From a virus (lineage: Duplodnaviria > Caudoviricetes): a DNA stretch of 64,000 bases. Under the pieces are notes generated by a model. That model was not told the origin of the DNA. It searched no databases and was given only the letters and a program-made list of their open reading frames with translations. The stretch covers positions 1,487-65,486 of IMG/VR virus record IMGVR_UViG_3300011947_000003; one strand, 5' to 3'. The translations under genes were made by a program, and so were the position numbers. Shown one piece after another: positions 4,973 to 59,571 of the stretch (positions within the stretch are counted from its first letter, which is position 1; every line of letters starts with the position of its first letter).

Positions 4973-5144
4973 GAATTATCGTGTATACACACTTGATTAT
5001 ATTAACAATATTCTATAACGCTCTATAATCGCGTATAAGACATTTAAAGATTTTGTGCTACCTATGTACCAGATTTGATGAAAACGCTTGAAACACGTTA
5101 AATGTGGCTTAAATTCGATGGGTTTTGATGAGTGATCTAGATAT

Positions 5145-5167
5145 AAAAAGGAAGTCATAAGACTTCC
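5145..5167 (-). terminator. intrinsic terminator
   Basis: GGAAGTC-ATAA-GACTTCC stem with a U-tract on the minus strand, just after 5174. Confidence 0.65.
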
Positions 5168-5173
5168 AGTTTA

Positions 5174-5548
5174 TCAATTGAACATAAAAACAAATGTGTG
5201 ATACAGGATCAACAAATGCAATAATTGATCAAATCCTATAGTGGGGAAAAATCCATTCATAGGGAGATCATCTGCTTTCCACATTTGCTTCCTGATGATG
5301 GTTGTAATGACATCTACCGCATAGTGTAGGATGGTATTTAGTATGATATAGTATTGGATCAAGTTAGTATCATATAACTTATAAGTAGCTGCATAAAAAA
5401 TCATTCCAAAAATCAAACCATATATTATTGAATGTAATGACATCCATAGTAAGGATTCATTTTTATGTTTTAAAAACTGATTTTGAAATAAAAAATCAGC
5501 CATGAAATGACCAATTAAAATAGCATTTAGTAAGTAAATCGTAATCAT
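5174..5548 (-). CDS. DUF3307-like membrane protein
   Basis: GHFMADFLFQ, LHSIIY, LHYAVD and GFDQLLH motifs with hydrophobic segments. Confidence 0.7.
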   Translation of the reverse strand: MITIYLLNAILIGHFMADFLFQNQFLKHKNESLLWMSLHSIIYGLIFGMIFYAATYKLYDTNLIQYYIILNTILHYAVDVITTIIRKQMWKADDLPMNGFFPTIGFDQLLHLLILYHTFVFMFN

Positions 5549-5675
5549 CTTTTTATTAAAATCCTTTATTGCAAAATATATTGATATGTATTTATCCGGC
5601 TTGTTTATAACTCGATAATATAAATACACTTTTAAAAATTTTAAATACTATAAAGATAAACAAGGATATTTGCAA

Positions 5676-6263
5676 ATGAAGTTCCAAGAATTTTTAAATG
5701 AAAAGTTTATCAACACATTTGTTGATGATAAAGAAACCCGTGATAAGTATAAAGAAGAAGTATACAACCTTATTCAATCTGCATACAAAGATATTGGCGG
5801 TTTTAAAGGTTCAGGCTTCAATTCACCTGATGATCTTGTTAAGAATATTGATATGTGGAAACTAAAGGTTCGGGATGGAAAGGTTATTGCTGGAAAGATG
5901 TATAAAGATCGATCTGGACGTAAGGGTGTATGTAGTTTTACCAATGGAACACAAGATGGGAAAAACGCATTAAAAGAAATGATTTTGGCTGATGCGACTC
6001 GATCTTATGGCGAAGTATCATCTAAAATGCTTTGGTTTATTGTTAAAACATATGGAATTAAGTTTGTTAAACAACATGCTATTCCGGTAGATAAAGTTAA
6101 AGAATTACTTCCTGATGATGGTATTAACACCGATCACATCGATAAAAAATATTTAACCGACTATCCAGAATTAAAAGACTACTTCTATGCCCGTGAACTT
6201 GGCGGAAAGCAAGAAACCAAAATCGCTTTTGGTACTCCAAATAAAACCATTAAGAAAAAGTGA
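5676..6263 (+). CDS. late protein with capsid-targeting-like N-terminus (putative internal head protein)
   Basis: Starts MKFQEFLNE; TAAATA late-promoter box at about 5642. Confidence 0.6.
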   Translation: MKFQEFLNEKFINTFVDDKETRDKYKEEVYNLIQSAYKDIGGFKGSGFNSPDDLVKNIDMWKLKVRDGKVIAGKMYKDRSGRKGVCSFTNGTQDGKNALKEMILADATRSYGEVSSKMLWFIVKTYGIKFVKQHAIPVDKVKELLPDDGINTDHIDKKYLTDYPELKDYFYARELGGKQETKIAFGTPNKTIKKK

Positions 6264-18528: not shown

Positions 18529-21500
18529 TTATGTAATTGTTGCTTTCATAACCGCTATTGACACTTCCCTAAAGATTGAATCTGGATTTCTAGTCACCAA
18601 TGCTGCCGATAAACCTTCTCCAACGCCAGACTTTGATCCGTGTGGGGTTGTTCCATTCATACCACCTGAAGGCATATCGCTTGCAGGTATCACAGTATGT
18701 TGATTGTTTTTCATATTGATATATGCCTTATTCGTTTCGCTTACTACTCCATCCACTTGCTTACGACCCTCATGATCAGGGGATAGTGATGCTGCATCTG
18801 AACTAGGTGATAAACTGATAGAATTCGCTCTAGCAAATGGATTGATGTCGATTTTACCATTTAATATATCTGCTACTGTATTCAGTCCGTAAGTCACCAT
18901 ATCACCCCCATTTTCTTTAGTATCGATAGCGCCTTTTGCAACCTTATAAATACCCCCTAATCCAAGCGGGTTATTTCTTTCCATAATTCCACCCAAAACA
19001 TCGACACCAACTTTTTTCAAATCACCCCCGCCGTTTATTACAGATTCAATCATTCCATAAACATTATTATTGTTTATATTTCCACCAAAAATATTTCCCA
19101 ATCCATTTGAATTACTAGCAACGATACCCCCGCTAGAACCAAATACATCATTCACACCAACGTTTGTAAATGGAGGATTAGATTGATCAATGTTCGCATT
19201 ATTCAATCCACCTGTCACCTGACTTGTTGCAAGCCCCCCTAATGTTTCAAGGCCAAAATCAATTAGAGTTCCTTGTTTATCAGCATTATATACACCTTGA
19301 CCAATGTTGTATAAACCACCTAGCCCAAATGCGCCAAATAGACTACCGAATATATCTGAATACTCCCCCCCAAATAATCTGTCATACCACTTCTTTTTCT
19401 TTTTCTTTTGTGATCCCATGTCATCTTGGCGAACAATACCCCCAAGACTTCCTGCATTACCAAGGTAATCATATGCAACGTCATGTTGTCTTTGAATTCC
19501 ACCAAGGTTCCCTGCTGCATCCAGATAATCAAAAGGAGAATCCTTTTGACGTTGAATTCCACCAAGATTTCCTGCTTCGTCTAAATAATCACGATCTGCA
19601 TTTTTTTGACGCTGAATTTCTTTACTAAACAGTGTTGAACGGTTTACACCTGCTTCACCAAATTTATACTTAAATCCTTTAGTATCTTGATTTTTAATAA
19701 CTGTATTAAAACCATCCATATTAACGGCATCTTTTTTATCATCTAATACATATGGATCAACACCCACTCTATCGAAATAATTAATTGCATCACGTGCCAT
19801 TTGATTATCAAACAAAGCAGCGCCGATAGATGCAACACCAGTAGTTAAGGCATTTTGCATACGATCTATTACAGATTCTTCAGTAACAGAACCTTCAGTA
19901 CCTTCAGCCCCAGCATTTATACCCTTTACATCATCACCATCTATCACGGCTTCTGGTGCACCTATTGCTACTCCATTAGAGAAACCAGATTTCGCGCGAT
20001 ATATGTGATATTGTAGATTTGCATTTGAACTAGGTTGAACAGATGATTGAACAAAGTCAGAAACCCAAACCTTACCAGTCCATATACATACGTGGCCGTA
20101 TCCTGATACCCCTGTAGGGAACCAAGCTATATCACCTTTCTGTAAACCATCTGCTACTCGAACCCATCCAATTGCTGGTAATGATTTCCCCCAATCTCTA
20201 GCATCTCCCATTGGCCCTACTTTTTTAGTAGTATCCCCTGCTTGTATTGCTTCGCGAACATACCTAGCACATTTTTTCTGTGATTTCGGTTTAGCATTTT
20301 GAACCGCAAACTGACACATTTTATCCAAATCATAACGACCTTTGGATTCTACTTTTTTAGTTGATGAATCCACCGACGATTTAGCTTTTGTAGTTGATTT
20401 AGCCGCTGGCGCTGTTTTAGAGTTAGATTTTGATGATGTATTGGCTGCTGGTGCAGGTGATCCGCCCTTACTTTGAGGGCCTTTAGCAACATGAGGACTA
20501 GCCAACATATCTTTATAAATGGCATTTTCATCAGCAATTCGCTGTCTTAATCCCTTCCAATTATTCGGGCTTTTTGAAAAATGAGTTTCTACATTCCGTG
20601 CACGATTATTCATAACACGATCAATGATTTCCTCATCACTCAATGTATTACCATTTCTACCACCCAGTGCCCGTTCCCAAATACCACCAGTTAACCCGCG
20701 ATATTGAACAGACATTGAATAGGCTAATTCTTGAACAGCACGACCACGTTCATTTACCTGAATTCCAGTTTTTTGTTTGATTGATTTAACAACAGGTGCG
20801 TAGTGTGTTCTTTGAATAAAGGCTTCTTGATCCTTTTCAAATTGTTCACCTTTATAGTCGGCAATAGTTCTATATGTTCTATCAAAACTTTCACTGCCGA
20901 TTTTATATTTTCCTAAATCAGCTTTATATTTTTTACCTTCAGAAGAATTTAAAAATTCTCGCATTGTTCCAGACTTAGAACTTAATTGATGTCTACCATA
21001 AGATTTTCCACCATTATCACCCTTACCAGAAGATATAGTTTTCACACCACCTTTGTTGGATTCATATAATGCAGATACAGAACCGAATTTTTTATTCAGG
21101 TCTGATACTGATTTACCCTTTGTATAATTTTTACTTGCAGTCACTCCCCCAGTTGATAAACCGGAATTAGCACCTGTCCCATCATTAATATTACCCCCAC
21201 CTAAACTAAACCATCCTTTTAGCGTAGATGCAATTCTAGAAAGAACGTTTGATGTTGTTTCTGATAACTTTGTAGCTGCTGTTCTGAAAACATTATCTGC
21301 CCCAAATACCCAATCAGTAAATTTTAACCCAAGACTTGTAGTGAATGATATCAATCCAAATGACATTGTTTTAGTCATATCAAGAAAGCTTATATTTGAT
21401 TTCTCAAGTTCCCCAGCCATTTTAGATGTACTATCATTTACCAGCGTAGATGAATCTTTCACCATCTGACCAGCAACAGCGGATTGTTCAGCCGTAGCTA

Positions 21501-23070
21501 AACCTGCTTCTGTTAGAGATACAACACCATCTTTAGTAATCGTGCTTATTTCAGTTGCTTGCTTAGCACTCTCATTCACATGATCACGATATGCTAATCC
21601 TGCTTGAATAGCAACTGCTGCCCCTGTACCCACAACCGGAACAAATGAAGCTAGGCCAGAAGCTATTTCCAGACCTGCCCCAACCCAATCCCCATCTACT
21701 GCGCGTGAAGCCGCCCCATAAACCCCTAATGCTGCCCCAACAAATGGTAATGCTTTAGCACCCATTTTAGCACCAGCTTTCACCATACCTGTAGTACCAG
21801 CTTTACTAATTGTATTAGTGATAGGCGATGATGCCCCTGCTAAAGAAAACCCATTCTTTTGAATGTTTAGGTCTTTAATATTTGGTTGTTTAACAATAGT
21901 ATCTTTTTCAACTTTAGGTTGTGCTTTTTTAAAGTTACCTAAATCAACCTTTTTATTGTCAACTTGTTCCCCAACCTTCAATATTTTTGGTGGCTTCACT
22001 GATCCAGATGCTTTTCCTGCATCAAAAACACCTTCAGGTAATTTTTTATTTTTACCCCCAAATATATCTGGTATACCTATTTTTTTAGTTAAGATTGGAA
22101 TAGCCATTGCTGCAATGGCTGGTAATACCATAGTGGCTGTTTGTATTACACTTTTAGATATATCATTATCATTAGGTACATATTCTACACCTTTTTCAGC
22201 AGCTTCTTTTCTAGCAATATTTTCTTTTTCCACATCACTAGCGCGGATAAAATCGCGGGTAATCATACCCACATCCAAACCTAAAGATGCAGCAGTCATT
22301 AATATTTTTTGTTTCGGATTTTTAGCTTTTGCAGCGGCTTCATGGAGTGCTAAAGATGCCCCTTCCCCAACAACACCTGTTGCATCTCCCTCCAATGCGC
22401 GCCCAATAATCATACCACCAGATGAAGCACGTACAAGATTCTTCATTAGGGGACTATCACTATACTTTCCTAAAGCCTTACCAAATGTACCGAATAACCC
22501 AATTGATTTTGATAATTCCTGTGCACTTGATGCTGCTTTAAGCGCATCAGTTCCCACATTTGCAGTTTTTAACATATTGGCTGCATTAGCTGCTTTAATT
22601 GCGTCCGCACCAGCACCAGCAAGTCCCATAGTGGACTTTGCCATTGTTTGGTATGGTTTCATACCATCTGGATTTGCGGCTGATAATGCGGCTGTTATGG
22701 CCGCTGTAAGCATAGGCAACATTGCCATGAAATTGAACGAATCATCTTTTTTGCTTTTCTCAAGTTTCAATAATTCTTCAAGGGAAGTATTAATTTGATC
22801 TACTTGATTATGAAGTTTCTTTCTAGATAATCGTTCTTCATCATCACGTGTGTTACGCTCAAGATATTCTCTCAACGCTTCACGATTATATCTTGAAGAT
22901 TCTTTACCAGAATTTTTTCTAAGAGATTCGCTTTCCTTGCGATCCTTTTTAGCTTCTTTAATAAAGTCGTTTAAAGCTTCATTTGTTTTATTATTGACGT
23001 TTATGAAACTATTAATATCTCGATCGTCGTCAACAATACCGTCCTTTTTATTATCATTATCTTTCGACAT
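18529..23070 (-). CDS. tape-measure / baseplate hub protein (gp29-like) with a VgrG3-type muramidase-like domain and a CHAP/NlpC-type amidase domain
   Basis: 1513 aa, Ala/Gly-rich; KALPFVGAALG...GDWVGAGLE; SALYES...ISSGKGDNGGKSYGRHQLSS; CARYVREA...GYGHVCIW; follows gp26/gp51-like genes. Confidence 0.8.
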   Translation of the reverse strand: MSKDNDNKKDGIVDDDRDINSFINVNNKTNEALNDFIKEAKKDRKESESLRKNSGKESSRYNREALREYLERNTRDDEERLSRKKLHNQVDQINTSLEELLKLEKSKKDDSFNFMAMLPMLTAAITAALSAANPDGMKPYQTMAKSTMGLAGAGADAIKAANAANMLKTANVGTDALKAASSAQELSKSIGLFGTFGKALGKYSDSPLMKNLVRASSGGMIIGRALEGDATGVVGEGASLALHEAAAKAKNPKQKILMTAASLGLDVGMITRDFIRASDVEKENIARKEAAEKGVEYVPNDNDISKSVIQTATMVLPAIAAMAIPILTKKIGIPDIFGGKNKKLPEGVFDAGKASGSVKPPKILKVGEQVDNKKVDLGNFKKAQPKVEKDTIVKQPNIKDLNIQKNGFSLAGASSPITNTISKAGTTGMVKAGAKMGAKALPFVGAALGVYGAASRAVDGDWVGAGLEIASGLASFVPVVGTGAAVAIQAGLAYRDHVNESAKQATEISTITKDGVVSLTEAGLATAEQSAVAGQMVKDSSTLVNDSTSKMAGELEKSNISFLDMTKTMSFGLISFTTSLGLKFTDWVFGADNVFRTAATKLSETTSNVLSRIASTLKGWFSLGGGNINDGTGANSGLSTGGVTASKNYTKGKSVSDLNKKFGSVSALYESNKGGVKTISSGKGDNGGKSYGRHQLSSKSGTMREFLNSSEGKKYKADLGKYKIGSESFDRTYRTIADYKGEQFEKDQEAFIQRTHYAPVVKSIKQKTGIQVNERGRAVQELAYSMSVQYRGLTGGIWERALGGRNGNTLSDEEIIDRVMNNRARNVETHFSKSPNNWKGLRQRIADENAIYKDMLASPHVAKGPQSKGGSPAPAANTSSKSNSKTAPAAKSTTKAKSSVDSSTKKVESKGRYDLDKMCQFAVQNAKPKSQKKCARYVREAIQAGDTTKKVGPMGDARDWGKSLPAIGWVRVADGLQKGDIAWFPTGVSGYGHVCIWTGKVWVSDFVQSSVQPSSNANLQYHIYRAKSGFSNGVAIGAPEAVIDGDDVKGINAGAEGTEGSVTEESVIDRMQNALTTGVASIGAALFDNQMARDAINYFDRVGVDPYVLDDKKDAVNMDGFNTVIKNQDTKGFKYKFGEAGVNRSTLFSKEIQRQKNADRDYLDEAGNLGGIQRQKDSPFDYLDAAGNLGGIQRQHDVAYDYLGNAGSLGGIVRQDDMGSQKKKKKKWYDRLFGGEYSDIFGSLFGAFGLGGLYNIGQGVYNADKQGTLIDFGLETLGGLATSQVTGGLNNANIDQSNPPFTNVGVNDVFGSSGGIVASNSNGLGNIFGGNINNNNVYGMIESVINGGGDLKKVGVDVLGGIMERNNPLGLGGIYKVAKGAIDTKENGGDMVTYGLNTVADILNGKIDINPFARANSISLSPSSDAASLSPDHEGRKQVDGVVSETNKAYINMKNNQHTVIPASDMPSGGMNGTTPHGSKSGVGEGLSAALVTRNPDSIFREVSIAVMKATIT
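19432..19611 (-). repeat. three tandem 60-nt (20-aa) repeats inside the tape-measure gene
   Basis: RQKNADRDYLDEAGNLGGIQ / RQKDSPFDYLDAAGNLGGIQ / RQHDVAYDYLGNAGSLGGIV. Confidence 0.9.
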
Positions 23071-44731: not shown

Positions 44732-45829
44732 TCATATTTGTTGATTGACACGAAACCAATGTTTCCATTCTTCTGATTTAGAATCACATCTCGAATTCAC
44801 CTGACGCTTACTAATTCCATATTTTTCCATTGCGTGTTTTAAACCAATACACTCACCATCTATGCTATACCAAACACCATTTACCCCAATTAACTCACCA
44901 GATATGTAGCGTGGATCATCTTTAGCAACTGTATATGTGTTTCCATACATATCCTTCACAGCGACTTTACCCTTATAAAATCCATCACCATAATTTACAT
45001 TTTTTAATTCATCGCTAATATATCTAGGATCATTCTTATCTATAGTAAATCTATTTCCTTCACTATCTTTCACTACCACTTTGCCACATTTAATATGTTT
45101 GAATTCGCCAGAAACATATCTCGGATCATCTTTAGATACTACCAACCTATTACCCAATGAATCACAAACCACAACTTTGTTTTTCATAGATTCATGTTTA
45201 TATCCTTTTTTATTACTACTAACATATACAAATTCACCACTAATATATCGCGGATCATTCACATCCACATGATGAACAACACCTTCTTTATCCTTAACCC
45301 GAACTTTACCCTTATTATGGTGTACTAACTCCCCTGATATATATCTAGGATCATTCTTAAACACAGTGAACATATTACCATCTTTATCACGAACACATAC
45401 TTTGGCCTTCATTGCATGAACCAATTCACCAGAAACATACCTTGGATCATCTACAGAAACTTGTTCAATATTCCCATTCTTATCAATTGCAGTCACAGTT
45501 CCAGCTACACAATGTATTTTCGCAGTTGATATTGTTTTATTATAAAAAAACGAATTGTGTTCCACTTCATATAGTTCAAGAAGCCGTGTTTCTTCTTGAT
45601 TAGCATCTTTTCTAGTATCAAATATTGATAAAACTTCATACTTATAATCATTTGGATTCGCTTTCTGACGAGCCAAAAACTGTTTATTTGATGATGAACT
45701 GAAATATTTTATACCGATATCATCCTTCGGATCACATGAGCATGAACGTACTCCAATGTACTTCATTCCAGTTGAAATTTCAGTGATTAAATAAACATAA
45801 TTATTTTTTGTATAAATAGTATTAGACAT
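44732..45829 (-). mobile_element. free-standing GIY-YIG (Seg-like) homing endonuclease with six ~32-aa DPRYISGE repeats
   Basis: YVYLITEISTGMKYIGVR...Y.SSS...E...YN catalytic domain plus repeat array. Confidence 0.85.
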
Positions 45830-45861
45830 GATAACTATTCCTGTAAAGTTATTGTGTTTAG

Positions 45862-45911
45862 AAAAGCGTTATCTATTGCAGTAGATTTCGCTTTTTGTCT
45901 TTTTATTTATA
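45862..45911 (-). promoter_or_regulatory. late promoter TATAAATA followed by a leader hairpin upstream of the endonuclease
   Basis: TATAAATA at 45904-45911; AAAAGCG/CGCTTTT stem with inner ATCTA/TAGAT. Confidence 0.6.
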
Positions 45912-45961
45912 CAAATTTGATAATATTCGATGTTCATTTGATCAACTGTGAAAACACCCTA

Positions 45962-45990
45962 TTGCAATGAACATAAATATATATTATATA
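45962..45990 (+). promoter_or_regulatory. putative promoter for the large ncRNA
   Basis: TTGCAA-17-TATATA, also containing CATAAATA. Confidence 0.45.
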
Positions 45991-46620
45991 GTTATGTCCG
46001 TAATCAATTATCATATGTGTATGACACCAGTATTGTGCATATATAGTCCTACTCATGCTGGACGCTGATATATAGGTATGAGAATGTTGGTTGATAATAC
46101 CAGCGATACGAAAAAATAAAGTGCGATCAATTTCCAGTCCTGAAAAATCGTGATGTGATCCCTATTAAGTTAGGTTGCGGTGATCACCAACATAGACGAA
46201 TCGATTGCATGTTGTATAGTGTAATCGGAATTGAATAAAACTATCCCGTATCTGAAACTGTTTTATTCAATTTGCCATACTAACCGTAGTCTATGAGAAT
46301 GAAGAAGTGGTTCTTTATTCGCTTGTCCAACAGCCGTGTTAAATGTTGGAAGATGTACTTCCTATGGCAAAGGAAGCAACGGTCATGAACCGTTTGGAGT
46401 ATCCATGCAACAAGCCAGAAATGGTGATGTAGACATTGTTAGGTCTGCTGTGAATATGAATGATAGATAAAATTCATTCATTACAAATCAAAAATATATA
46501 GATGATAGAGATATAAAAGTAAATATATCCCAATTTCAACAGAAATCATCAAAAATATTATTGGTCTGATCACAGATGTAATGGACTGAAGTTGTGTCTG
46601 AAATTTGATAAAACATATTT
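45991..46620 (+). ncRNA. large structured ncRNA, ROOL-like (ends approximate)
   Basis: No ORF of 60 aa or more in any frame; more than 12 consecutive stems with G-U pairs favouring the + strand; CAUAGAC/GUCUAUG, ACGGUCAUGA, CAGAAAUG and CAAUUUCAAC in the order recalled for ROOL. Confidence 0.7.
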
Positions 46621-46668
46621 GTTGTGATATGATCGCATTCAATTGAATGCCAATACAATGAGAAAGTA

Positions 46669-47220
46669 ATGACTGAAGATCAAATCTTATATGAACTAAT
46701 CACCAAGTTAAATCTTAACTTCATCGTTGCTGTACGCAATAGTATCTATACTAGGTTCTGTGCTAACAATTTGACTATTCAACAGAACCACGATTCAGAA
46801 TTGTATGATAGACGCTTTGTAGTGGTGAATGCGGCTGATGATCGCATCTATCTAGATGAATTGGATATACCATATATCAATGCATTCTATGATATGGGGA
46901 TGAAGAGAGTAATCCGTAAAAAGAAAGAAGAAATTGAACTTCTGGAAGATATTCATAAAGAACAATATCGATCTAGAATTCCAAAGGCCATTTCACACAT
47001 CATTGGTATTCCATATGAAGACCTAAAAGTTGTTGGGGGCAATGAATTGATTTATGTCAGTGAATCATACAATAACAGTGAACGCCAATTGAAATCTATG
47101 GCTAAACATTTTCCATTGCTGGAACGCTACCTGAAAGAAAATGATATCAATCAGGATGCGCGTGTGATTATTCTGACACCAGAAGAATATAAACGTCGTT
47201 TTCCAATTTCTGATATGTAA
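46669..47220 (+). CDS. hypothetical protein downstream of the ncRNA
   Basis: 183-aa ORF, GAGAAAG RBS. Confidence 0.6.
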   Translation: MTEDQILYELITKLNLNFIVAVRNSIYTRFCANNLTIQQNHDSELYDRRFVVVNAADDRIYLDELDIPYINAFYDMGMKRVIRKKKEEIELLEDIHKEQYRSRIPKAISHIIGIPYEDLKVVGGNELIYVSESYNNSERQLKSMAKHFPLLERYLKENDINQDARVIILTPEEYKRRFPISDM

Positions 47221-57356: not shown

Positions 57357-57656
57357 TTAGTTATAAACAATATCTTTGTCACCAACGACAAAATCATACA
57401 TAGTTATCCCGTTTATGTTAACATATATGTTTGGCAAATTGATATCAATATATTGTCCATTTAACGAAACTATTTCACCATGCTTATAAAATGATGCAGT
57501 TTTAATTTCTTTCCCATGTATTTTATAGATTTTATTCATATACTCAATATCGTAGTGATCTAATATGATCAAGTTATATTGGGCATTAGTTTCAGTTTCT
57601 TCTTTTGTTATTGCTACCATATCAATTGGTAGACCATCATTGATCAGTAATGTCAT
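57357..57656 (-). CDS. degenerate IntC-like (Hint) protein with no C-extein
   Basis: AGGTG RBS, ATG overlaps the terL-N end; weak colinear match to intein 2 from QILTEDG to block F; ends DIVYN*. Confidence 0.45.
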   Translation of the reverse strand: MTLLINDGLPIDMVAITKEETETNAQYNLIILDHYDIEYMNKIYKIHGKEIKTASFYKHGEIVSLNGQYIDINLPNIYVNINGITMYDFVVGDKDIVYN

Positions 57657-59571
57657 GTTTAGCACCTGCGTATAAGTAATCAAATAATTTATCTACATGT
57701 ATTTGGAAAATTTTCCCTGTGTGATTATCCAGCATTGTTACCAATGAATCACCATCAATACAATTACTTAGAATGGCTGATAAATCATTTACAGCAAAGC
57801 TATGGGTATCTTTGACTGATATCATATCGGCAACACGGTATTCACCCTTATAGACGTTAATATTGGTGATTATATTTTTTTCTTCAACACCAACTACATC
57901 ACCAACTTTAAGATCAGACATTTTGATGAATTGACCATCAAATAATTTAATCTCATGTTTAGCAGTTGCACGAATCTTACTATCATTTGATAATATGATT
58001 TCATAAAGTTCATCAACTGTCCTAGTAGTGATCCCATCAAAATCTTTGAACCCATCTTCAGTTAAAATTTGATATGTATAATTAGGAACATACGATTCAA
58101 CTACATTCTCATGTTCAATCAAATCATATAGTTGTCCAATAGTAAGGTCTAATTCCTCACCATTGATCCGTACAGTGATGTTTGTATCCTTAGTGCTACA
58201 ATTGTGTGTTGGAACCAAAGATCGACCACATAAGAACAAGTGTGATTCATTATTAACAGTGATGCAATATGACGCTTCAGTAGGCACTTCTTTAATAGAA
58301 TGAATATACAAACGTTTTGATTTTGGATGCGATGAATTTGCATACTGGCGATCGAGTTTACGCGGTAATGTACAAACATCAAATTCATTACAAACAAAAC
58401 ATACTGTATAAGCAAGTTTGGCATTTTCCATCGTTGGTTGTTTACTATACATTGTCGATTTAATACCAAGCGTGGATAACAATAAACGGAAATCTTCAAT
58501 AATTTTTAAATTTGATTGATAAAACCGACATACGCCATTCTTTTCAATAGAACCATCAGTATCCATTAATCCCTGAAGCAACTTGATACGCACTTCTTTG
58601 CTGTTATATATATAATCATTTGGAATATGTTTGTTTTTATATAAATTATATAATTTGAGTTCAGTTAACCCCCAGTCTTTAAATTTACGATCTCCTACAT
58701 GACCTCTATTCTTGCGACCTACATATTCCATCAAATTAGTATTTGATTCATAGTGATCATGATCTATTTTTGATGCGGTCAATTTTGTAGAACAACTATG
58801 ACCATCACCCAGCCATAAACCAAGTTCATACGGGTCAATCTCAACATCGTTATATGGGAATTCAACACATGCAGCATGATCAATAAACATGCCTTTTTTC
58901 TGACGATGTATCACTTTTAATCGTTCATTCATATGTTCAGTATTTCCAACCACATATTTTTCTTTAGATGAATCATAGAATTTCCAGTCATGATTAGCAC
59001 CAGCAATAATTTCTTCACCATTATCAAATGTGATCTTATAACACTTTTCATAAATTGGATCAGTTTTGAATGTTACTTCAGTTGGCTTCCCATCATCACC
59101 AAATATAAAATCACCAACCTTAATATCTTCCATCATCTTAAAGCCACGTGTGGTTAATATAGGTGTATCCCAAGCTAGATTTTTTCCCATTTGACGCGGG
59201 AATTTAAAAATACTGAATCGATTTTCATGAATGACTTTAATCGTGTTGCGCTGGTACTGGAACATTTTGAATAGCTGTAGACCATCAGACATGGTGATAA
59301 TCTTGCAGTAATTCACAATGAAATAAAGAATGTCATCATAACATCTTTCCATTTCATCCAATTGATCTTGAGTATATGGAAAATCGACATCACGGTTCAT
59401 GATCTTGATTTCACCATTATAGCAATTCAGCTTTTTGAATTCCTCATCTACATCTTCGATTTCTGGTGCATTTTCGATTTCTGAAAACACGTCCATTCCA
59501 ATAGTAGGATCGAATGGCAATTTATACTCGTAATATTCAGGATATATTTTACTTTCTCTTTTTTGACTCAT
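57637..59571 (-). CDS. gp17: terminase large subunit N-terminal fragment (aa 1-130, to Walker A GK) fused to three stacked inteins
   Basis: C..DILYFI.NYCKI....GL..F....YQ...I...HENRF.I...PRQMGK is the T4 gp17-type N-terminus; the ORF stops in a 41-aa IntN. Confidence 0.9.
   Translation of the reverse strand: MSQKRESKIYPEYYEYKLPFDPTIGMDVFSEIENAPEIEDVDEEFKKLNCYNGEIKIMNRDVDFPYTQDQLDEMERCYDDILYFIVNYCKIITMSDGLQLFKMFQYQRNTIKVIHENRFSIFKFPRQMGKNLAWDTPILTTRGFKMMEDIKVGDFIFGDDGKPTEVTFKTDPIYEKCYKITFDNGEEIIAGANHDWKFYDSSKEKYVVGNTEHMNERLKVIHRQKKGMFIDHAACVEFPYNDVEIDPYELGLWLGDGHSCSTKLTASKIDHDHYESNTNLMEYVGRKNRGHVGDRKFKDWGLTELKLYNLYKNKHIPNDYIYNSKEVRIKLLQGLMDTDGSIEKNGVCRFYQSNLKIIEDFRLLLSTLGIKSTMYSKQPTMENAKLAYTVCFVCNEFDVCTLPRKLDRQYANSSHPKSKRLYIHSIKEVPTEASYCITVNNESHLFLCGRSLVPTHNCSTKDTNITVRINGEELDLTIGQLYDLIEHENVVESYVPNYTYQILTEDGFKDFDGITTRTVDELYEIILSNDSKIRATAKHEIKLFDGQFIKMSDLKVGDVVGVEEKNIITNINVYKGEYRVADMISVKDTHSFAVNDLSAILSNCIDGDSLVTMLDNHTGKIFQIHVDKLFDYLYAGAKHDITDQ
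57640..57762 (-). mobile_element. intein 3: N-fragment of an atypically split intein
   Basis: CIDGDSLVTMLD..TG.I.....KLFD then stop; 41 aa. Confidence 0.8.
57763..58200 (-). mobile_element. intein 2: contiguous mini-intein of the TerL (AceL/GOS-TerL-like) type
   Basis: CSTKDT...TIGQLY; QILTEDGFKDFDGI; block B ATAKH; LKVGD; ends THSFAVN..ILSN/C; 146 aa. Confidence 0.85.
58201..59181 (-). mobile_element. intein 1: class-3 (WCT) intein with LAGLIDADG homing endonuclease, Asn at position 1
   Basis: NLAWDTPILT; block B NHDW; YELGLWLGDG; LLQGLMDTDG; block F YCITV; ends PTHN/C; 327 aa. Confidence 0.9.

Follow-up and report, generated by a model that had tools for sequence, protein, structure and literature searches.

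About as certainly as sequence analysis allows, positions 46043-46485 of the phage DNA analysed here are a real, selected gene for a structured RNA, read from the plus strand. The DNA, which we call the window, covers 64 kb of an IMG/VR virus record that is 65.5 kb long. The core of the RNA comprises helices P2 to P17 and three long-range pairings in about 445 nt. With moderate confidence, we interpret it as the gene for a stand-alone non-coding RNA that acts through its fold, possibly together with a protein of 183 residues encoded next to it.

The core lies in a gap without genes (45830-46668), bounded by the gene of a GIY-YIG homing endonuclease on the minus strand (44732-45829; GIY-YIG/HNH endonuclease by PHROG and Pfam) and by a 183-aa ORF on the plus strand (46669-47220). 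All ORFs within the gap are short, with at most 53 aa, and none is conserved in the core, where neither position nor frame is kept among homologues. An earlier note on this DNA had described an ORF-free stretch in an otherwise gene-dense genome of a T4-type phage, and both parts of this description agree with our analysis. Judged from the gene content of the window, the phage is a distant T4-like one: its gp41-type helicase has about 35% identity with the counterparts in T4-like coliphages, and further T4-like markers are a primase, thymidylate synthase (td), rIIB, PhoH, a baseplate hub protein, DHFR (frd) and a tail-fibre protein. The genomic setting of the RNA is the early region, near frd.

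Some further features of the record concern the phage as a whole. CheckV estimated the completeness of the 65.5-kb record at 17%, implying a genome of about 385 kb, and the same locus is found, with 100% identical flanks, in a Logan contig of 167,767 nt (L041), so that an ordinary T4-like phage and a jumbo phage are both conceivable. A 644-aa ORF at 57637-59571 has Pfam matches to LAGLIDADG and intein-splicing domains, and a protein of 1513 residues (18529-23070) combines a CHAP domain with a C-terminal lysozyme domain of the VgrG3 type (E 9e-50), and is probably a tail-associated cell-wall hydrolase.

A blastn search with the gap against 50,697 phage records yielded zero matches. When IMG/VR, JGI metagenomes and GTDB genomes were scanned for exact and gapped words, all matches proved to be due to chance on checking with blastn or nhmmer, so that the RNA family is absent from these three collections or rare in them. 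We reached its relatives through neighbouring proteins, namely homologues of the 183-aa ORF and of an 88-aa gene on the left. All homologous loci are Logan/ENA contigs and belong to uncultured phages. They provide nine distinct RNA sequences, from the window (identical to L042), L041, L043, L005, L002, L003, L044, L045 (identical to L046 and L049) and L047, which correspond to about six independent lineages of a single phage clade; an additional contig, L040, holds only a 3' fragment of the RNA. In L002, L003, L041, L043, L044, L045 and L047, a homologue of the 183-aa ORF is again preceded by about 800 nt that lack ORFs, and the left-hand neighbour of this unit of RNA and ORF differs between loci. 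Identity of the RNA to that of the window is 95%, 86%, 80% and 71-73% across the relatives, and identity of the neighbouring 183-aa ORF protein drops to 82%, 42%, 37% and 33%. Thus, the RNA of L003 is 80% identical and its protein 42%, and the RNAs of L044, L045 and L047 are 71-73% identical, against 37%, 33% and 33% for their proteins. These comparisons show an RNA that is conserved well beyond its protein-coding neighbours.

Homology with the relatives that have no endonuclease begins at 46043, and an nhmmer search with the family profile matched the window at 46034-46487. The core has a G+C content of 37-38.5%, against 25-30% in its flanks, and its GC skew is positive, the same as in the plus-strand ORF. 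The earlier note had placed a non-coding RNA of about 600-630 nt in this region. The minimum free energy of that 630-nt stretch is -163.7 kcal/mol (z = -5.4 versus shuffled sequence), and the plus strand folds more stably than the minus strand by 16 kcal/mol. The large structured RNA is confirmed, but the part conserved among homologues is shorter than the note had it, being confined to the core.

To evaluate the fold, we aligned the core with MAFFT by sequence alone (alignment A4). RNAalifold predicted 96 pairs from this alignment, 36 of them with compensatory double changes. The structure that we tested was this prediction minus one doubtful long-range helix, plus the three long-range pairings; it has 107 pairs in 18 helices, and in the nine sequences 97.8% of its 951 cells are paired. 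In a control in which the 3' partners were slid by 1-3 columns, pairing fell to 34.5-39.6%. Double changes were observed at 38 pairs, compared to 4-9 in the slid controls and a mean of 17.4 in shuffled alignments, none of which reached the observed value in 500 trials. Pairing is 97.8% on the plus strand and 88.5% on the minus strand. The functional strand is the plus strand, since G-U cells far outnumber A-C cells (93 vs 6), which bears out the preference of the G-U pairs for this strand that had been read from the window. Differences in hairpin length among the homologues are not multiples of three. The core therefore shows the generic marks of a structured non-coding RNA gene, that is, compensatory changes, an asymmetry of G-U pairs between strands and no conserved ORF. 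The comparison of homologues establishes at least 17 helices for the RNA.

Eight of the nine stems that the earlier note had named are real, lie where it had located them and keep their pairing in the homologues, mostly through compensatory changes. They are CAUAGAC (46191-97) with GUCUAUG (46289-95), the 13-bp stem 46229-41/46260-72, CCAACA/UGUUGG, CUUCCU/AGGAAG, AACGGU/ACCGUU, GCCA-GAAA-UGGU, GUAGAC/GUCUGC and a stem given as 8 bp, which is present but has 9 bp (46202-10/46219-27). Only GAUAUA/UAUAUC falls into a tail that is unalignable with the distant homologues.

At the centre of the fold is a junction domain (46191-46295), in which P6 (46191-97/46289-95) encloses P7 (46202-10/46219-27), P8 (46228-41/46260-73) and P9 (46278-80/46286-88). 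P6, P7 and P8 have two to four compensated pairs each, and the P8 loop, with 18 nt, is almost invariant. Three hairpins outside this domain were missed by the alignment-based fold owing to shifts in the alignment, and each of them re-forms in every homologue. P10 (46297-46320) varies in sequence and length, but a hairpin forms between fixed anchors in each homologue when folded alone. P15 (46414-46425), the GNRA-capped hairpin GCCA-GAAA-UGGU, has different stem sequences in relatives, where its equivalents are AUCAAUU/AAUUGGU, GUUAAUCA/UGAUUAAU and GUCAAU/AUUGGC. P17 (46449-46485), the 3' hairpin UGUGA-AUA-UGAAUGA ... UCAUUCA-UUACA, is kept with other sequences in L003, L044, L045 and L047. 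It accounts for part of what had been taken for an AU-rich insertion at 46455-46530; that interval is in part this conserved hairpin and only in part a variable spacer. In P13, the loop with its closing pair (46383-46389) is self-complementary in eight of the nine sequences (UCAUGA, or UCUAGA in L003 by a double substitution) and loses its self-complementarity in L044 (UCAAGA). This palindrome is a weak hint at self-association of the RNA through loop-loop contacts.

Loop-loop and loop-junction pairings tie the junction domain to P12 and P16, as the comparison of homologues shows, and probably also to the 5' strand. In PK3, a pair of kissing loops, UAAC of the P9 loop (46281-46284) pairs with GUUA of the P16 loop (46438-46441); it is 100% paired and covaries, five sequences having U-A where the other four have C-G. 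PK2 joins GCCA (46274-46277) to UGGC in the P12 loop (46365-46368) and contains a change from G-C to A-U in L003; its outer A-U pair is lost in three sequences. PK1, between GAUACG (46105-46110) and CGUAUC in the P8 loop (46247-46252), has 6 bp, is perfect and is invariant in all nine sequences, so that we infer it as a real pairing from complementarity only, covariation being absent.

Several other candidates were rejected. The long-range helix of RNAalifold (A4 columns 14-16 with 422-424) clashes with the covarying P15 and has zero double changes. A pseudoknot between AACAA and UUGUU has four of its five pairs broken in one sequence and none that covary, and PK3 was adopted in its place. Kissing of the P11 and P12 loops (GCCG with UGGC) was dropped, as PK2 has a compensatory change. 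A long-range pairing of CUGUGA with UCACAG shows a single compensatory event and competes with the well-supported P17, and we retain it as a hint only. Repeated words of 5-8 nt, mapped to the alignment columns of the nine homologues, gave no co-varying pair; they are either invariant or unlike between their two sites.

The earlier note had assigned this RNA to ROOL, a proposal that our searches do not bear out. With the 4227 models of Rfam 15 at their gathering thresholds, no match was obtained in the whole 64-kb window, including for ROOL (RF03087; 574 positions, gathering score 99.1 bits). Searching 45800-46700 (901 nt) at E<=10 with lax filters gave no large-RNA family, ROOL included, and the five homologous loci L002, L003, L041, L045 and L047 had no Rfam match at E<=0.1. 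A targeted ROOL search was likewise without a match, as it was in the control genomes. None of the models for GOLLD and OLE, proposed in the note as controls, or for raiA, HEARO, group I and II introns, RNase P, tmRNA, 6S and Polynucleobacter-1 (RF01718) matched. Within 46043-46485, the only Rfam row was mir-958, at chance level (14.8 bits vs a gathering score of 78, E 7.3); the remaining weak rows fall into the flanks of the core. By these searches, the RNA is uncatalogued, lying outside every Rfam family.

A true but highly divergent ROOL RNA could still be envisaged, given that both are large, ornate and phage-borne, that three pseudoknots are present as in ROOL (PMC5737381), and that, according to the earlier note, short motifs would follow a similar order. 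We regard this as extremely improbable. Besides the silence of the model, ROOL has about 581 nt and six multistem junctions (PMC5737381), in contrast to about 445 nt and one multistem junction, P6 with P7-P9, among otherwise tandem hairpins in the present RNA, whose three long-range pairings moreover join different elements. ROOL is typical of prophages or phages of Firmicutes and others and, like GOLLD, is typically near tRNA islands (PMC5737381, PMC12286853), whereas the present RNA is carried by a lytic T4-like phage and ARAGORN found neither tRNA nor tmRNA genes in the 64-kb window. Cryo-EM has revealed ROOL as a homo-octameric and GOLLD as a 14-meric cage, both made of RNA only (PMC12286853).

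The RNA is thus best seen as a separate family that is similar in kind to ROOL and GOLLD, the ornate RNAs of phages. With ROOL it shares large size, dense structure, several pseudoknots, carriage by phages and the lack of a known protein partner and function; with GOLLD, it shares size, ornateness, phage association and the lack of a known function. GOLLD differs in having more than 800 nt, a conserved 3' half and a variable 5' half, and in being usually located near tRNAs (Weinberg et al. 2009). Another comparison is offered by the Vibrio phage ICP1, in which a gap devoid of ORFs between gp139 and gp140 gives rise to a non-coding transcript of about 800 nt and very high abundance (PMC7567579). 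Both RNAs come from ORF-free gaps of about 1 kb in lytic myophages, and ICP1 is a precedent for a large phage non-coding RNA in a Gram-negative host with no tRNAs nearby. The two have no sequence similarity (blastn, 50,697 phage records), and the evidence is of opposite kinds: for ICP1 expression was shown but not structure, whereas for the present RNA it is the structure that follows, from sequence comparison. A catalogue of structured RNAs in IMG/VR published in 2023 would have missed the present RNA, because its motifs comprise only 29-151 nt and each had to match at least three IMG/VR regions (PMC10690425).

The 5' flank of the gene in the window has been altered by a mobile element. Relative to L041, the window is 100% identical up to 44750 and homology resumes at 46043; the intervening cassette of 1292 nt (44751-46042), with the endonuclease gene on its minus strand, replaces 56 nt that contain the native promoter of the RNA in relatives, so that the insertion coincides exactly with the promoter and 5' leader of the RNA gene. 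The endonuclease is also present in L042 and is absent from L041, L043, L002, L003, L045 and L047. The approximately 120 nt of the RNA next to the cassette have about 80% identity to L041, with helices maintained, and beyond them the RNA has a single difference. Such a tract is what co-conversion next to a homing endonuclease would leave behind, and it suggests that the target of the enzyme lies in the conserved RNA gene. We considered whether the RNA is a group I or II intron associated with the endonuclease and discarded this, because flanking exons are absent on both strands, no intron model matches and the endonuclease was inserted later.

Within the cassette, the best promoter-like element of the region, TTGAAA-18-CATAAT (45772-45801), faces a hairpin (45862-45895) with a U-run on the plus strand, and cmscan gave a sub-threshold match to SymR-antitoxin at 45824-45899 (36.1 bits vs a gathering score of 61, E 5.7e-5). 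A small antisense RNA over the start of the endonuclease gene (45772-45908, plus strand) is therefore possible.

In every lineage, a σ70-type pair of -35 and -10 elements with a 17-nt spacer is located on the plus strand, 15-60 nt before the first conserved helix: TTGACA-17-TATAAG in L041, L043 and L005, TTGACT-17-TATAAG in L002, TTGTAA-17-TATAAA in L003 and, in distant relatives, TTGCAA-17-TATGAT in L045 and TTGACA-17-TATAAA in L047. In the window, the promoter-like element that had been noticed just upstream does exist, as TTGCAA-17-TATATA at 45962-45990 (plus strand), about 50 nt before the core, but it is part of the inserted cassette and weaker than the native promoter of the relatives, which counts against stand-alone transcription. 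This element was read by eye from the sequence; the promoter scanner skipped it, since its -10 hexamer lacks the final T. If transcription started near 45998, the transcript would have about 490 nt; in the distant relatives it would have about 500-520 nt, with two more hairpins at the 3' end. These extra hairpins, AAAUGC-UWCG-GCAUUU and GUUUUGC-NNN-GCAAAAC, are found in L003, L044, L045 and L047.

Between the core and the next gene, an AU-rich spacer and a second conserved block occupy 46486-46604 (plus strand). The block itself (46543-46612, with UCACAG at 46570-75) is 73-84% conserved in L003, L004, L038 and L040, and the length of the spacer varies. The segment 46486-46604 may be either a 3' tail of the RNA or control DNA for the next gene. 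It is followed by a promoter of the 183-aa ORF, TTGATA-17-TATGAT with a TG extension (46605-46633, plus strand; 10 of 12 matches), and by a perfect 16-nt palindrome, GCATTCAATTGAATGC (46635-46650), which starts 2 nt past the -10 hexamer. Promoter and palindrome form an element (46605-46650) that is conserved in the near clade, with L002 retaining the inner TTCAATTGAA; the palindrome may serve as an operator or form a hairpin at the 5' end of the mRNA.

The constant association with this ORF raises the question whether the RNA is a cis-acting leader that controls it, for example a giant 5' UTR, an autoregulatory element bound by a protein or a sensor in the manner of a riboswitch. At every RNA-bearing locus the RNA lies upstream of an ORF homologue, in the same orientation and with a spacing that varies little (about 140-200 nt). 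No convincing terminator was found 3' of the core in the clade of the window, so that read-through into the ORF, and hence a role as a leader, is conceivable. A switch is hinted at by the 5' strand of P17, CUGUGA (46448-53), which could alternatively pair with the UCACAG of the conserved block, L047 having CCGUGA/UCACGG at the two sites. However, the ORF has its own good promoter past the RNA, with comparable elements in L045 and L047, and in the distant relatives the extra hairpins end the RNA about 200 nt short of the ORF. Further, a more distant homologue of the ORF occurs in L048 in another context and without the RNA, and about 445 nt with three tertiary pairings far exceed the needs of known leaders. 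On balance, we find a leader rather unlikely.

The locus could also be a replication origin whose transcript is a structured primer or forms an R-loop, with the AT-rich stretch downstream as the unwinding element. Precedents are RNA II of ColE1 and the T4 origins oriF and oriG, which consist of a promoter and an unwinding element. A strong promoter is followed here by a folded RNA and then by a stretch of 24-30% G+C, transcription at the locus is divergent, and short direct repeats connect 46454-67 with 46496-509 and 46487-97 with 46548-58. Yet the AT-rich spacer is unconserved in sequence and length, no gene for an origin-binding protein or helicase loader is adjacent, and there is no skew switch beyond the two plus-strand units. 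An origin thus seems very unlikely to us.

We favour the stand-alone RNA because of its own promoter, the separate promoter of the ORF, the elaborate fold and the preservation of the RNA and ORF as a unit while the left neighbour changes. In this interpretation, host RNA polymerase would transcribe the RNA as its own unit from the σ70-type promoter, and transcription early in infection is probable, since such a promoter is found upstream in every lineage. The product would be a stable, trans-acting RNA that works through its three-dimensional fold, binding a protein or other macromolecule or assembling with itself, rather than by coding or by simple antisense pairing. Its function can be proposed only by analogy.

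The RNA and the 183-aa ORF would then form a conserved two-gene module, possibly an RNA-protein pair. An AlphaFold2 model of the protein (pLDDT 89) has two α/β domains linked by a long helix. Foldseek searches of PDB and BFVD with this model returned no match at E<=0.001, and the top VIA-align match, with a Z-score of 7.3, is within background, the C-terminal domain of T4 MotA reaching only 5. The lack of a recognisable RNA-binding fold in this predicted structure speaks against an RNA-protein module, as does the RNA-free homologue in L048. In L045, the ORF family is represented downstream of the RNA by two tandem paralogues (5001-5588, P0010, and 5747-6253, P0014). A more far-reaching form of the stand-alone reading is that the RNA works in a higher-order assembly, as a homo-oligomer or in a particle together with the 183-aa protein; a clade of T4-like phages would make it early in infection to capture or mimic a host component. 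We consider this unlikely.

To our knowledge, few bacterial and phage RNAs both exceed about 400 nt and have conserved tertiary pairings, and each class that we know of (rRNA, RNase P, group I and II introns, OLE, GOLLD, ROOL, raiA) is a catalyst or forms an unusual assembly. The present family is so far limited to a handful of metagenomic contigs, all from uncultured phages. Its nine sequences yield 38 covarying pairs, and the RNA is compact and has three long-range contacts, which makes it a ready candidate for cryo-EM and biochemistry, and its conserved link to one small protein gene provides a concrete candidate partner. It indicates that lytic T4-like phages, beyond the prophages of Firmicutes, also carry large ornate RNAs and, if the reading as a higher-order assembly were true, it would be the first representative of a new class among the ornate RNAs of phages.
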